Below are positions 2,982 through 8,144 of a stretch of DNA of 10,605 nt, in pieces (within the stretch, counting starts at the first letter, position 1; every line of letters starts with the position of its first letter). The position numbers and the translations under genes are program-made. The stretch lies in the IMG/VR virus record IMGVR_UViG_2582580933_000002; one strand, written 5' to 3'. This DNA is from a virus. Lineage: Duplodnaviria > Heunggongvirae > Uroviricota > Caudoviricetes. The notes under the pieces were generated by a model. It searched no databases. It worked only from the letters and a program-made list of their open reading frames with translations, and was not told where the DNA came from.

Positions 2982-4022
2982 TTAAACTCCCAACATGCTT
3001 GCAAATGCCAGCGGCTGGCGAATGATTGCGCCCCAGGTGCCACCGGTTTTCTTTTGTTTATACGCGGACAGATCAACAACAACCGGATGCGCACGCATTT
3101 TTTCGGTAAATGCGCAGTAGCCGGTGTCCTGACCATCCAAATCGTCGGCGATCAGCTGAACCAGTTCGCCGGATTCGGTTTTGTACTCGACAGCAGTAAC
3201 AACGCGCAGGTTCGGGAAGTTTTTCTTCAACTGATCAGACACGTTGACGTTGTACATGTTGGTCTTGGTCAGATTTGCTTCTGACTCTGGAGACATCGCC
3301 AGCGTCATCTTGCTGTCTCGCTCAACGTACCCCTTGGTCTGCTTCACTAACTGCATGTAAAGCGCCTGGATATCGTCATACACCGCCTGACCGTCTTTTG
3401 TTGCCCAGGTGGTTCCGCCGCTCGCACCAGTTGCACCCGGGGTGATTGATGCCGGAAGGTTAGGGTCATTCAGAATGCCGTAGTTCTTCAGGCCAGCAAC
3501 GCCGAAGAAGTAGGACTTGTTCTGAAACTTATTCAGGGTCAGCGCAGAAGAAGTATTCAGTTGTTGAGACCATGCAATGCGGGCTTCACCGTAACGGTCA
3601 AGTTCCAGCTCACCCCACTGAGTAATGGTCTGGTACAGATAGGACTCACGAGCAACCCAGTTGACGTTAGCATTTACCTGCCCATTATTGTTGTAGTCAC
3701 CATAACTGGAAACCTGACCCGTTGATTCCACAACCGGGAATTGTGCGGTCATGGTGGTCCAGTCTCCCTTCTTCGTTTCCCCCAGAATTTCCACCGCTTT
3801 CATCGGAGTGACAAGGATGCGAATCAGTTCCGGGTCAACGTAATTAGTGAAGTACCATGGAATGCCAGAGTTGCTGGTTGTTACCAGTGAAGGCTGAGAG
3901 TCCATTGCATAGGAATAGCTATTAGCAACAGCATCCGTCAGATAGGCTTTGGCTTCCGGAAGGATTACACCGTAATCTCGCTCAGCCATAGCTTTATGTT
4001 GTAAAAATTCTGCGTTATTCAT
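2982..4022 (-). CDS. major capsid protein (DUF2184-like), 346 aa
   Basis: ATG at 4022 preceded by GGAGCTAA. Size and position (after scaffold/protease and decoration-like genes, before the head-tail ORFs) fit the major capsid of this head-module type. Assigned by synteny and recollection. Confidence 0.72.
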
Positions 4023-4025
4023 GTA

Positions 4026-4505
4026 TTAGCTCCAGGTGCCCATCTGAATCAATTCGCCAGCCTCGCCAGCACTGCCAACAACAAATTTTGTTTCAACGTA
4101 ATCCGAGATTGACGCCCCGGCATCGCCAGCGGTAATGGTTCCATCTGACAGTTTGGCGAAAATCTTCTGCCCTACGGTTGCCGCACCGGCAGTTTTCACC
4201 CAGTAGTCGCCAGCAGTCATCAATGTCATCTGAACTCCAGGCTGAATAGTCATAGATGATTCACCAAGCCATGTGGTGACAGACGCCTGCCCTTCCCGAT
4301 GAACGAAACCGGCAGGAGCACCGGTTCCAGTGTTATTGACAACACCATTGCTTACCCATGCAAAGCGACCAACAACAACCCCATTTGCACCGGCAACAAG
4401 AGCGCCCTCACCTGCAAGAAGACTTGCTTTAGGGTTAGCCGAAGCGAAATCCCCTTCAACTCCCGGCGCCTGTTGCTGATTAATTACACTTTGAAAGCCA
4501 CTCAT
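4026..4505 (-). CDS. head decoration / cement-like protein, 159 aa
   Basis: ATG at 4505 preceded by GGAGCTAA. Gly/Ala/Val-rich small protein between the scaffold/protease gene and the capsid gene, the usual place for a decoration protein. Functional call is inference. Confidence 0.5.
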   Translation of the reverse strand: MSGFQSVINQQQAPGVEGDFASANPKASLLAGEGALVAGANGVVVGRFAWVSNGVVNNTGTGAPAGFVHREGQASVTTWLGESSMTIQPGVQMTLMTAGDYWVKTAGAATVGQKIFAKLSDGTITAGDAGASISDYVETKFVVGSAGEAGELIQMGTWS

Positions 4506-4508
4506 TTC

Positions 4509-5735
4509 TTAGCTCCGTTTCAGTTTAGTTGCGCCAGGAAATGCCTTGGCGAAAGAATTGGTTGCAGCAGAATCCATCCCCATACCATGAGATGGTTTGC
4601 GAACTACCGCTTTCTGGCTGATAGCAAATTCAACCATCGATTTAAGTGCTGAAGGATGAACGCCTTTATGTTCGGCACCGATTGAATCAAGAGCAAAGCG
4701 ATAAATAGACTCTGCGGAATCCATAGCGACCAGACTCACATCACCAACCAAAGCACGAACACATTCTCGAGCCTCATTGGCTTGACGGATACGCCCCATC
4801 ACATTCTCTTCAGCTTTTCGAATCAATGCGGCATCCATAGCTGCTTTATTCTCATCATCGTCTTCATCCTCGGCAGTCTTTTTATCCTTGCCGTCATCAT
4901 CTTCGTCTTCCGCTTCTTTGCGGTCACGATCGCGATCCTTTCGCTCACGTTCTTCACGCTCTTTTAGTTCATCCTCTTCACGTTTCAGACGCTCTGCTTC
5001 TGACTCATTATCTCTCTCAGCCTGAGTGGCTTCGTCTTCAACAACCTTTTGCACTTTCTTTTCCACTTCTTCTGGCTTCTCATCACTTGCCAGCATCGGC
5101 GTGATAACTGCCATCAACTTTTTAGTAAGTTCTGACATTGATTTCATTCCTGTTGGTATTGAATCCCCGACAACAACGTCGGATCCGGCTCTTCCCTCTG
5201 TTACGAGAGCAACGTGGTTCCCGACGATATCGCGCATTACACCATCGTATGGCTGGCCTTCATGCACGCCGGGGGTCATGTCAGCTACATATCTGTAGGC
5301 CGACGAAAGTTCTTTCTTCTCGTCTGTCTCGATTCCAGCGATAGAATCTGCGTCCCATACGACAAGCGAGTTCTTGAGATAAGTCCCGTCAAACTCAGCA
5401 TCAGTACCAGTAGAACCAACCACAGCCATCTTCTGAGGGTCTGCAGCAGTAACCGGAATGTGTTCGTTAAGGAGCGGGATGTTGTTGAATGTAGATGCTG
5501 CTTTGGCTAACTCTTTCGGGTCACGAAGCAGGTAGTAAAACTTGTCAGGCTGTAAACCTAGCGATCTGTAATTAGGGATTTCACGCCCATAATAAGGGCA
5601 AACGTTAGCCTTACTGATTGGCGTCACTTCGATATGCAAACGCCCATCCTTATCAAAGGAGCGCACCGTTGCCTTGTCGAATGCCAATCCGTGATATCCC
5701 CATTGCCAGTCGCCTTTAACTTTGCGTAATGGCAT
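4509..5735 (-). CDS. prohead protease / scaffolding-like protein (DUF2213-like N-terminal domain with charged coiled-coil linker), 408 aa
   Basis: ATG at 5735 preceded by AAAGG. Residues ~217-298 are extremely charged (for example [39 protein letters not shown]), as expected of a scaffold. Position between the Mu F-like gene and the capsid gene. DUF2213 assignment is from recollection. Confidence 0.65.
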
Positions 5736-5755
5736 GCTTTTACCTTTCGGCAGGC

Positions 5756-5780
5756 AATAAAAAAGCCGCAGTAGCGGCCA
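5756..5780 (-). terminator. intrinsic-terminator-like hairpin followed by a U-tract
   Basis: The minus-strand RNA would read GGCCGC-UACU-GCGGCU followed by UUUUUAUU: a 6 bp stem (one G-U pair), 4 nt loop and T-run, directly after the stop of the small ORF and 21 nt before the scaffold gene start. Confidence 0.35.
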
Positions 5781-5873
5781 TTATTTCCTCTTGGACATAG
5801 CTATTTTCAGTAGTGCAATCATTAAGCAACCAAAAATCAACACTAATCCCAGAGACCATAAAACCTCAATCAT
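5781..5873 (-). CDS. small hydrophobic single-pass membrane peptide, 30 aa (candidate moron, toxin or membrane effector)
   Basis: ATG at 5873-5871 overlaps the TGA (5872-5870) of the head morphogenesis gene; TAA at 5783-5781. I translated it by hand as [30 protein letters not shown]: about 20 hydrophobic residues followed by a KRK tail. It is absent from the ORF track, which lists only ORFs of 60 aa or more. 32 of its 93 nt are G/C (~34%), below the surrounding genes, and it uses rare codons (TTA, CTA, ATA, AGG). Confidence 0.35.
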   Translation of the reverse strand: MIEVLWSLGLVLIFGCLMIALLKIAMSKRK

Positions 5874-6688
5874 TTTCTATCTATCCCAGGGATAACAGGA
5901 GACCACGTACAACGGCAGTTGATAGCCTCTCCCGGCAGCACCCATTCACCATCGAGATACAGCCCTTTATCGAGGTCGAACTCTTTACCGTCAGCTTTCA
6001 CATGGGATGGCCTTGGCTGCTTCCCGGCGTGTGAGTGACGCCAGATTCCTTTGGTGATTCCTAACTTCTTCTGCCGTTCAGACTGAATTACCGCTGTAGC
6101 TTTGTTGTTCTGGTCGCGTGCAATCGTCTCAGCGCGTCTGCGTGTAATGCCATATCGCTTAACCAGTTCATCAGTGAGATAGCCAAGGTCACGACCACGG
6201 CTGACAGACTGCATGACCATCGTCTCCACCTGCGTGTGATATTGCTCAGGTATCGACTTAATCAGGTTGACGTTCTCGTTAACGACAGCCTGCATCACGT
6301 TCTTAAGCTCGTCATTCATTGTGAACTTAACGGTAAATCCGCCAGCCTTTAACGCTGAGTGTAACGAAACGTCGGTGTTGCGCAGTGTCTTATCAACGAA
6401 GCGATCAGCCAGTTTCTTGGCAAGCTCATTGAACTTGCTTTCCCACTGCTTTCCGAGCTTAGCCAGCCTGCGCTTTAACTCATCCGCCGGACTGGCATCC
6501 ATCGCCATGCTGTCTTTGTATGCAGCCTCAAGCCAGTACCGGTAAGACTTATTCATCTCACTGACCAACTTGAGAAGCTCAGAGCGATACCACTCATGAA
6601 CTCCGGCATTAGCTCTGACTGGACGAAGGGTTTTCCGGGTCTTCGAATCCTTCTTCGACGGACTCGTTTTCGTGCTCTTCTTCGTCAT
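5870..6688 (-). CDS. phage head morphogenesis protein, Mu F-like / SPP1 gp7 family, 272 aa
   Basis: The C-terminal region carries the cysteine motif typical of Mu F-like domains ([13 protein letters not shown]...[13 protein letters not shown]). Position directly after the portal gene. The ATG at 6688 gives an 80 nt overlap with the portal gene; alternative in-frame starts downstream (a TTG, and an ATG at Met45, about 6556) cannot be excluded. Confidence 0.8.
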
Positions 6689-8144
6689 ATTCAGATTCCA
6701 TCATGTGGTATGGGCTGGCCTTATCCGACTGGCGCATGCTTCTTATTGCATCAAGGTCGAACACGCCAGCTTCGGCATAGTTCTTATCAGCCTCAGACTG
6801 ATGTTTCATGATCTCGGCTTTCTCTGCTTCTGTAAGCTCGTACAGCGGCAGGAATTCAAAATCAATGTCAGGGTCAATCTCGCCAAATTCATTCAACTGG
6901 ATAACATCCAGCACTGTTTTCAGCGGCACCCTGAACAGATTCTCCTGCATGGCGTGTATTGAGTCATAGAAGACGCGGATTTCGCCATCAGATGAAGCGT
7001 TTAGCCCGTTAGGAGTGATGCCAAGGAGCTTAACCAGAGGAATGCTTGATACCGATGCCATTTGTTCCTGCGCTTGCGCCTGAAGAGCATCAACTCCGGA
7101 CAGACTTGTCACAAACTGGAAGAATTCTTCTCCATCCTTATCAATAAGGAACATTCCGCGATTGTCGCGAACCTTATTGAATAGCTCGGCACGCATAAAC
7201 AGGTTTGGGTCTGCAATTCCAGACAAGGCATTCTGCATGTTCGTCTTCAGCCCATAGACCACAAACGAATGAACCAGATCGCTAACGCTGTCACGTGTTC
7301 TCAGCCAGTTTTGCACATATGGCTCTGCCATCTGACTCAGCGACAAGCCGCCGAAGTTGTACGCCGCTTTGAGAATGTCTGGCACCTGGCGAGAAATCAT
7401 TGTCAACATACGGCTGGCGTGAACAGTCCGCCCCATGACATACCATTCAGATGGATTGAAGAAATCAGGACTGAGAGGGTTGTCAGCGTTATACACACCA
7501 GGGTATGTCCACATGGCCTCGATAACGCGGAAACCATTCAGGCTTCCTTTGGTAATCTTGCGTGGGCTGATATAGAGCTTCTTATCCAGTTCGTCGGGAA
7601 CCAGCCAGGCTGAGTTACCGCTTGGCGTCTTCACGTCGATATAAATCTGTCCGCGCCCGAAGTAACCGTCATGTTCCGCCGCCTCGCGAAACTTCTCTCG
7701 CACTCTGAAACGCTTTAATGCTTCGTCAAGCTGGCGAATCTTATCGGCCTTGTCGTCACCATCGTCTTTACCTACATGCTTCAGCTCAATCCATTTTCTC
7801 GTCATCTCTTCTGCTATCGTGCCAGTAATCTTGCGATACTCCGGCAACTGAGCAAGTTGAGACAGATATGGGTAGCCAGGAAATCCACCGTAGCCATATG
7901 CGGTGATGTTTGCTGAGTTAAGGTAACTGTACGGCGTGGAGTCCATCGCCAGAGCTGACTCCCCAATATGTTCAGGAATAACGCCTGGCGGGGGTACGTA
8001 TCTCTCAATTCTACGCAATGCCTCGCCTTCATTTTTAATTCGCTCCTGTTCGTTAATAATCGCAAGAACATTCGCCAGAGACATTGGCTGTTTCGCCTCT
8101 TCTTTCTGAGGCTCAGATTTTTTCTTTCTCAAAAAATTAAACAC
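6609..8144 (-). CDS. portal protein (DUF1073-like), 511 aa
   Basis: Large ORF directly downstream of the terminase large subunit; canonical position and size for a portal. The track start is a GTG at 8144-8142 (GAGG about 8 nt upstream, overlapping the terminase TAG); an alternative ATG lies at 8084. Basic N-terminus and very acidic C-terminal tail. Confidence 0.75.

Follow-up and report, generated by a model that had tools for sequence, protein, structure and literature searches.

A conserved 30-codon membrane-peptide gene, skipped by annotation, in an optional slot of the head module of an enterobacterial prophage

The window analyzed here is a stretch of 10,605 nucleotides from the Caudoviricetes record IMGVR_UViG_2582580933_000002 of IMG/VR, and its element of interest is a 30-codon open reading frame (ORF) on the minus strand (5873..5781; ATG at 5873–5871, TAA at 5783–5781), which lies between a Mu F-like head morphogenesis gene and a DUF2213 scaffold gene. 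Judged by the way in which its sequence has diverged among relatives, this ORF is a genuine protein-coding gene. The general idea of a preliminary description of the window, that an accessory small membrane peptide is encoded in a moron-like slot and has been missed by annotation, proved to be right. We further consider it probable, although by a modest measure, that the peptide is an optional cargo that is produced late and in low abundance, spans the membrane once and perturbs it by self-association.

As an assessment of coding, we collected 125 loci encoding Mu F relatives from GTDB genomes and IMG/VR, and determined for each of them where Mu F stops and where DUF2213 begins. An ATG on the Mu F stop, followed by an ORF in the same frame, was present in all 33 loci with a Mu F at least 90% identical, and 32 of these ORFs were intact. 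The peptide occurs in three versions, namely type A, which is that of the window, type B (MIEVFKALGLTLIFGGIIIAALTITSLKKNNGR, 33 amino acids) and type C (MIEVFKALGLTLIFGGVIIATLVITALAKK). Between types A and B, identity is 60% in DNA and about 56% in protein, with no insertion or deletion (indel) over 29 codons, and the pairwise comparisons of A, B and C gave 54–79% DNA and 50–57% protein identity, likewise indel-free across 29 codons. Twelve positions were invariant across ten variants. The pairwise ratio of nonsynonymous to synonymous differences (pN/pS) was 0.18 within type B and 0.3–0.5 between types (full range, 0.18–0.54), with the synonymous sites near saturation in this comparison. A ratio of nonsynonymous to synonymous substitution rates over the first 150 nucleotides of the DUF2213 gene was unreliable, probably because unaligned N-terminal coding regions had been compared, and was left unused. 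We then simulated divergence by placing the 35 observed substitutions at random on type A; the ORF was open in 24% of the trials, the ORF together with a comparable hydrophobic window was retained in 1%, and a protein identity as high as the observed one was reached in 0.013% (p about 1e-4).

The preliminary description had allowed that the gap might be a non-coding spacer that happens to be open, in which case related phages should show it without a conserved frame and with indels freely tolerated. The comparison of homologous head modules gave the opposite picture, with conservation at the amino acid level wherever Mu F is at least 90% identical. Thus, the retained frame, the lack of indels, the pN/pS values and the simulation lead us to reject the open-spacer reading. 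It is known that short hydrophobic ORFs readily arise in AT-rich intergenic DNA (PMC11188072), and one further frame is open as well. While the remaining frames are closed, an antisense frame whose third codon positions coincide with those of the peptide frame stays open in all 21 variants, as is expected from this coincidence; it is represented by the plus-strand ORF 5791..5895. The start of this ORF is not conserved, and we rejected it as a conserved feature, as we did a 39-amino acid minus-strand ORF (5859..5740) that is present in variant A only. With the frame, the start, the stop region and the amino acid character of the peptide kept across about 40–50% DNA divergence, a non-coding spacer, or a conserved ORF in another frame or strand, is very improbable.

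Residues 4–22 of the peptide form a 19-residue hydrophobic stretch with a summed Hessa-scale value of −3.5 kcal/mol, flanked by a charge of −1 on the N-terminal side, from one acidic residue, and of +4 on the C-terminal side. The single predicted transmembrane helix with a basic C-terminal tail, which had been noted before, is thereby supported. The layout of an acidic N-terminal flank, a helix and a basic tail is kept in all variants. Under the positive-inside rule, such a peptide is predicted to cross the inner membrane once and to have its C-terminus on the cytoplasmic side (N-out/C-in). G9, G15, G/C16 and A20 are conserved within an invariant LIFG core, and these small-residue positions, together with the core, would suit helix–helix packing.

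To define the surroundings of the gene, we compared the slot between the two flanking genes among relatives. Mu F and DUF2213 adjoin, with a gap of 20 nucleotides or less, in 45 other relatives, and the gap is 3 nucleotides in the isolated Klebsiella phages ST899-OXA48phi17.1 and RCIP0114. As the flanking genes adjoin in these relatives, isolated phages included, the peptide is dispensable for making heads. In 33 further relatives the slot contains other inserts, which encode an HNH-AP2 endonuclease, a family of 170–184 amino acids, or several uncharacterized proteins of 50–115 amino acids; type C loci keep the peptide, with additional genes placed after it. A metagenomic relative (L171) was informative. 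Its Mu F is 43% identical to that of the window and has no DNA match to the type C locus L102. Its peptide gene, which follows Mu F after a 7-nucleotide spacer with a GAGG of its own, is 91% identical to that of L102 over 67 nucleotides, and its block of terminator-like hairpin and ribosome-binding site (RBS) is 82% identical. These results indicate that the peptide gene and the terminator block recombine independently of the head genes. From this pattern of presence and absence, the slot behaves as a moron-type accessory cassette, and the peptide gene is an optional add-on outside the head machinery. The peptide gene, where present, always comes directly after Mu F and ahead of the scaffold gene, a position that might suggest a head-assembly factor, such as one that, like T4 gp40, anchors prohead initiation to the membrane. 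However, many relatives lack it, among them Klebsiella phages that have been isolated and form plaques, and it has a homolog in a non-phage Salmonella locus (see below), which together leave a role in head assembly with hardly any credibility.

The slot showed other features as well. In three loci (L079, L082 and L091) it contains a 168-amino acid HNH-AP2 homing-endonuclease-like gene, and the hairpin is absent there. The slot of L171 also encodes a second small protein, of 63 amino acids with two hydrophobic segments, and the DUF2213 scaffold-like protein of the same locus (3886–5793; 635 amino acids) includes an ADP-ribosyltransferase exotoxin domain (PF03496), which suggests a toxin domain carried on a head-internal protein. 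A non-coding leader of ~90 nucleotides (ATCTGGCTAGGGTAGC...GCCTGCCAGAT), an inverted repeat around two small hairpins, lies upstream of differing cargo genes in the slot (L069, about 3520–3640; L102, about 3895–4010; Edwardsiella phage GF-2, L131, 1225–1320), and exact 28-nucleotide matches to it were found in seven IMG/VR contigs. Its fold energy was not unusual in the variant C loci (z −0.98). It might serve the cargo as a promoter or as a regulatory region. A pattern search of IMG/VR for the peptide gave no contigs beyond those already reached through Mu F.

A homolog of the peptide outside phages was found by a profile search, for which we used an alignment headed by a 44-amino acid, N-terminally extended database version of the peptide. 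The search returned 65 small proteins, many of which were 31-amino acid Salmonella peptides (MIEVFEAFGWTLLLGGLAVAVLFITALDRKR and variants), and sequences such as MIEVFQWFGATLIFGGVLIAGLAIAAMKK link these to the phage types. The Salmonella form was reached independently by tblastn with a type B query, at an expectation value (E) of 4e-3. One cluster member, P0037 (470 amino acids), proved to be an unrelated histidine kinase and a clustering artifact. The homolog (MIEVFEAFGWTLLLG[GS]LAVAVLFITALDRKR, 31 amino acids; 6001–6096 of L167, a Salmonella enterica chromosome, and 455–550 of L130) is very widespread in Salmonella enterica assemblies, occurring in more than 4,500 index blocks of the collection. 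Its neighbors are the genes of a methyltransferase on one side and of a PMT_2 membrane glycosyltransferase on the other, in the vicinity of cybB and hrpA; judged by its location beside cybB, the methyltransferase gene is the STM1638 of the literature, next to rydC. The homolog is preceded by a GGAGG of its own and by 370 bp of AT-rich sequence with many promoter-like sites, and no terminator was found after it. From the free-standing homolog we conclude that the peptide is a self-contained functional unit rather than an appendage of Mu F. Literature searches with the peptide strings found no mention of it, the supplements of a Salmonella small-protein census (PMC10117436) contained no match to the homolog or to STM1637/1638, and no searchable paper or census supplement mentions it.

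The Salmonella homolog is arranged tail-to-tail with the gene of the 516-amino acid PMT_2 membrane glycosyltransferase. This arrangement would agree with a non-toxic role, in which the small peptide would sit in the membrane, pack its helix against that of one particular membrane protein of the host or the phage and leave the bilayer unperturbed, for example to block the entry of superinfecting DNA or to modulate a transporter or a protease, in the manner of AcrZ, MgtS, HK97 gp15 or T4 Imm. Most characterized small membrane proteins of enterobacteria act by binding specific membrane partners. The conserved small residues with the LIFG core would fit such packing, and an accessory, mobile gene in a prophage would be a suitable carrier. 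Against this, no partner was identifiable, a PADLOC search gave no hit, and we found no promoter from which the repressed prophage could express the gene, as superinfection exclusion would normally require. We consider a binding role, the main rival of the reading that we favor (see below), unlikely, although worth keeping in mind.

We next consider how the gene may be expressed. The TGA of the Mu F-like gene (5872–5870) shares bases with the peptide ATG, so that stop and start form an ATGA overlap on the minus strand (5873–5870, read from the sequence), as the preliminary description had stated. A scan for sigma-70-like promoters on either strand of 4400–7000 found none against 2.5 expected, and a whole-window scan gave no promoter-like site near the ORF; both were simple consensus scans, which a weak or atypical promoter could escape. 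A search of 5400–6300 against Rfam gave only matches far below the gathering scores, and no antisense RNA. Types B and C have a GGAG 5 nucleotides upstream of the peptide start. The economical reading of the ATGA overlap and the lack of a detected promoter is that the gene would be transcribed together with the rest of the late head operon and translated by termination–reinitiation. Termination–reinitiation coupling at stop/start overlaps is reportedly dealt with in the 2019 work of Huber et al.

These results bear on the possibility that the peptide belongs to a type I toxin–antitoxin module or to a classical moron, that is, a gene that the repressed prophage transcribes independently and under antisense control, benefiting the lysogen or stabilizing the prophage. 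In its size, helix and basic tail, the peptide resembles the Hok, Ldr, TisB and Fst-type toxins, it has a borderline similarity to the Hol_Tox/BsrE-like peptides (see below), a terminator-like hairpin follows the gene, the composition of variant A is deviant, and the Salmonella homolog stands free behind an AT-rich, promoter-rich region. The expression signals of the window speak against such a module: no promoter-like site was found in 4400–7000 against 2.5 expected, no Rfam match came near its threshold, the ATG shares bases with the stop codon of a late structural gene, and no room is left for a 5′ untranslated region with the usual translational control. The type I toxin-like architecture that had been suggested for the ORF did not hold up, as no promoter, antisense RNA or 5′ leader was found; of the suggested moron-type insertion, the position and the terminator stand, while an own promoter was not found in 4400–7000. 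An autonomously transcribed toxin–antitoxin module or moron is accordingly improbable.

The peptide gene is followed by an intrinsic-terminator-like hairpin (5779..5759, minus strand; GGCCGC-TACT-GCGGCT and a T run), which begins 1 nucleotide past the TAA. The T run consists of six T (5764–5759), the first of which the scan assigned to the end of the stem. This hairpin is the top-ranked terminator-like site of the whole window, and so the preliminary description was correct in placing such a structure after the ORF. In the relatives, the slot is closed by a near-constant stretch of 30 nucleotides, GGTCGC-N4-GCGGCC-T6-ATTGCC, followed by the RBS of the scaffold gene; in the window this RBS (GAAAGG, 5748–5743) lies in a minus-strand spacer (5736..5758) that is conserved along with the hairpin. 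The 30-nucleotide block was present in nearly all peptide loci, in 16 loci without the peptide and in Edwardsiella phage GF-2, with a variable loop and an almost invariant stem, and in three loci it stood alone with no cargo. It is near-identical in phages with a Mu F 43–68% identical and with unrelated cargo, and its DNA is more strongly conserved than the flanking genes (loci: window 5736–5779, minus strand; L004, L026, L083–L107, L126, L131, which is GF-2, L171 and L172). Besides being a putative terminator, the block looks like a recombination or boundary element of the variable slot. Matches of 34 nucleotides to it were also seen within tail regions of Mannheimia and Klebsiella phages.

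The geometry of peptide stop and hairpin raises the possibility of a role in cis, in which reinitiating ribosomes would mask the 5′ arm of the hairpin and allow read-through into the scaffold and capsid genes, whereas untranslated transcripts would be terminated. The peptide stop is 1 nucleotide from the hairpin, or inside the loop in variant B, and in more than 20 cargo arrangements, read by hand, the stop of the last gene lies between the inside of the loop and 21 nucleotides upstream of the stem, with a median of about 6 nucleotides. The conservation of the hairpin DNA above that of the flanking genes also agrees with this possibility. However, an action in cis needs neither the amino acid sequence nor the membrane helix, both of which are conserved; the Salmonella homolog has no terminator, and further genes separate the variant C peptide from the hairpin. 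We thus consider a cis role as the function of the ORF improbable, although it could coexist with a function of the peptide itself. An arrangement of this combined kind, in which peptide and hairpin form one device, with a Hol-Tox-like permeabilizing peptide whose translation, ending at or inside the stem, acts as a ribosome-dependent antiterminator, seems to us a long shot. If it were true, translation of a head gene would be coupled both to read-through into the structural genes and to a membrane timer, and the Hol-Tox-like family, so far characterized only as Gram-positive type I toxins, would extend to Gram-negative phages and Salmonella.

The reading that we favor is as follows. The peptide gene would come first in an optional slot of a temperate, myovirus-type prophage of Enterobacteriaceae and, in the window, would have that slot to itself. 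It would be transcribed within the late head operon, and ribosomes that end on the Mu F stop would restart at the overlapping ATG, yielding small amounts of the peptide late in lytic growth. A single helix of the product would span the inner membrane, with the short acidic N-terminus outside and the basic tail in the cytoplasm, and by concentration-dependent self-association the product might depolarize or permeabilize the membrane as ComI and the BsrE-like 'Hol-Tox' peptides do. In this way the peptide might adjust when lysis occurs, or might switch off membrane functions of the host in late infection. The cassette would be closed by the conserved hairpin. Taken alone, the depolarizing or permeabilizing activity, for which we argue by analogy, is possible but doubtful.

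The analogy comes from searches against known families. ComI of the Bacillus subtilis plasmid pBS32 is a 30-amino acid single-pass peptide; once a critical concentration is exceeded, it permeabilizes and kills cells, and it was assigned by its authors to the BsrE-like family of type I toxins (bioRxiv 10.1101/2024.02.02.578676). Two type B variants of our peptide aligned over the full 34-position model of Hol_Tox (PF16935) with 25.1 and 23.8 bits, above the gathering threshold of 23.3. Other sister variants scored 22.7, 20.9, 17.9 and 15 bits, below that threshold, such short hydrophobic matches being composition-prone, and there was no match for type C, the Salmonella type or the S27P variant. 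With one transmembrane segment, the window peptide has the size and layout of the Hol_Tox type (about 30–50 amino acids). We take the InterPro entry IPR031616 to be the same family as PF16935. One N-terminally extended relative has been named 'putative holin-like toxin' by the annotation pipeline PGAP. In PHROGs, sister variants had only marginal matches to families of unknown function (phrog_9488, E 0.006; phrog_6569, E 0.014), and the window peptide had none.

A number of observations weigh against the reading that we favor. The window peptide itself scored only 12.9 bits against Hol_Tox (E 0.1), below the gathering threshold, and 13.9 bits (second score, 14.3) against the ComI equivalog NF052249 of NCBIfam, for which the cut-off is 55; matches between short hydrophobic helices are, moreover, prone to composition bias. 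A phmmer search with the 30-amino acid peptide against 1.84 billion representatives returned its own cluster only. Since the window copy is sub-threshold and such matches are composition-prone, the likeness to Hol_Tox and ComI is best taken as a lead to mechanism and not as membership. The resemblance to small toxic peptides that had been proposed for the ORF is therefore borderline, reaching the threshold for some sister variants, with the window copy below it. The constraint on the peptide is moderate rather than strict, as judged from the pN/pS of 0.3–0.5 between types. One copy (L066, IMG/VR 648276647_000004) has a 1-nucleotide deletion that leaves 21 amino acids, and another (L002, E. coli EcE.CRE.COL) has prolines at positions 22 and 27 (L22P and S27P); either the constraint is not absolute or those prophages are decaying. 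The Shine–Dalgarno sequence of type A, the E. coli variant, is weak (GGGATAGATAGAAA). A purely late-operon view has difficulty in accounting for a terminator directly before the scaffold and capsid genes, which are highly expressed, and the peptide gene is far from any lysis cassette.

The other genes of the window, tightly packed on the same strand, make up a head and neck module and encode the small and large terminase, the portal, a cement protein and the major capsid protein. The Mu F-like minor head or head morphogenesis gene (6688..5870, minus strand) matched PF04233 (Phage_Mu_F) with 58 bits and is named 'phage minor head / head morphogenesis protein' by PGAP. Its longest ORF (272 amino acids) overlaps the portal gene by 80 nucleotides (6609–6688), and PGAP places the start later, at about 6556, giving 228 amino acids. 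The right-hand boundary of the slot is the DUF2213, or Pa193-gp24-like, scaffolding gene (5735..4509, minus strand; PF09979, 169 bits), the only PDB match of whose product is 9b40_G, 'gp24 Scaffolding protein' (E 1.4e-5). These matches confirm the flanks that had been assigned to the ORF. The gap between the two genes, 134 nucleotides (5736–5869), is the only sizeable intergenic gap of the head module; the presence in it of the 30-codon ORF was also confirmed, with the clarification that all of this is on the minus strand. The GC content of the ORF is 0.34 against about 0.50 on either flank, and the AT-richness ascribed to it thus applies to the window variant, whereas the sister variants B and C have 44–45% GC.

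The region matches a prophage in 20 of 5,426 complete E. coli genomes, at 97–100% identity, and a megablast search of 50,697 phage records with the region gave no match; the prophage is known solely from bacterial genomes and IMG/VR. In the RefSeq annotation of all 20 E. coli carriers, PGAP calls both flanking genes and nothing between them, in keeping with the expectation that standard gene callers would miss the ORF. Near-identical peptides have been called by sources other than PGAP (DAM87198.1, SQK24869.1 and EPH0496656.1); the database name of the first, 'chitin synthase regulator', found no support in any analysis here. In one E. coli genome (Z1323CEC0006, L001 1–1073), an IS100 element of the IS21 family lies beside a KilA-N gene just upstream of the terminase genes, and at least that prophage copy may be disrupted by the insertion.

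What we describe is a conserved small membrane-protein gene that a standard pipeline skips inside a structural operon, a place where accessory genes are seldom sought. The slot between Mu F and the scaffold gene, with its DNA-conserved terminator block, can be mined for further accessory genes of phages, and the phage peptide is tied to a very widespread Salmonella homolog and, tentatively, to the ComI/BsrE-like toxin family. Should the peptide permeabilize or depolarize membranes, it would offer a new and compact point of access to the way in which temperate phages of enterobacteria time lysis or shut off their hosts; should it have no measurable effect, it would be another small ORF.

Among known systems, the Hol_Tox, ComI and BsrE-like peptides share with this one a length of 30–34 amino acids, one membrane helix, a short basic C-terminus and carriage on mobile elements, but the present peptide differs from Hol_Tox and ComI in its Gram-negative host, in the lack of a detected promoter or antisense RNA of its own and in a start that overlaps a phage head gene. 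The enterobacterial type I toxins include Hok/Gef, Ldr, TisB, ShoB, DinQ and ZorO. Our peptide is comparable with them in its small hydrophobic helix, its charged end and, by analogy, a possible depolarization of the membrane; it has no sequence match to them, and no antisense or small RNA partner, leader or own promoter was found for it.

The morons of the lambdoid phages HK97 and HK022 are said to have been described by Juhala et al. and by Hendrix et al., both in 2000. Like these, the peptide gene is an extra gene between genes that otherwise adjoin, an intrinsic terminator follows it and the cargo varies across phages; in the window variant the composition is deviant as well (34% against about 50% GC), although the coding of a hydrophobic helix also lowers GC. 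Unlike these, it has no detected promoter, its start overlaps the stop of a late gene, and its sister variants are not AT-rich. Phage holins and antiholins are also small membrane proteins, with which the peptide shares a predicted basic cytoplasmic C-terminus and probable late expression. It differs from holins in that it lies in the head module, has no adjoining endolysin, is optional among close relatives and is shorter than the canonical holins. A last comparison is with the 67,297 clusters of small ORFs of Enterobacteriaceae reported in 'The Cryptic Bacterial Microproteome' (Fesenko et al., PMC11188072), which the peptide gene resembles in being unannotated and intergenic, in its size class of 15–70 codons, in purifying selection and in encoding a predicted membrane helix.

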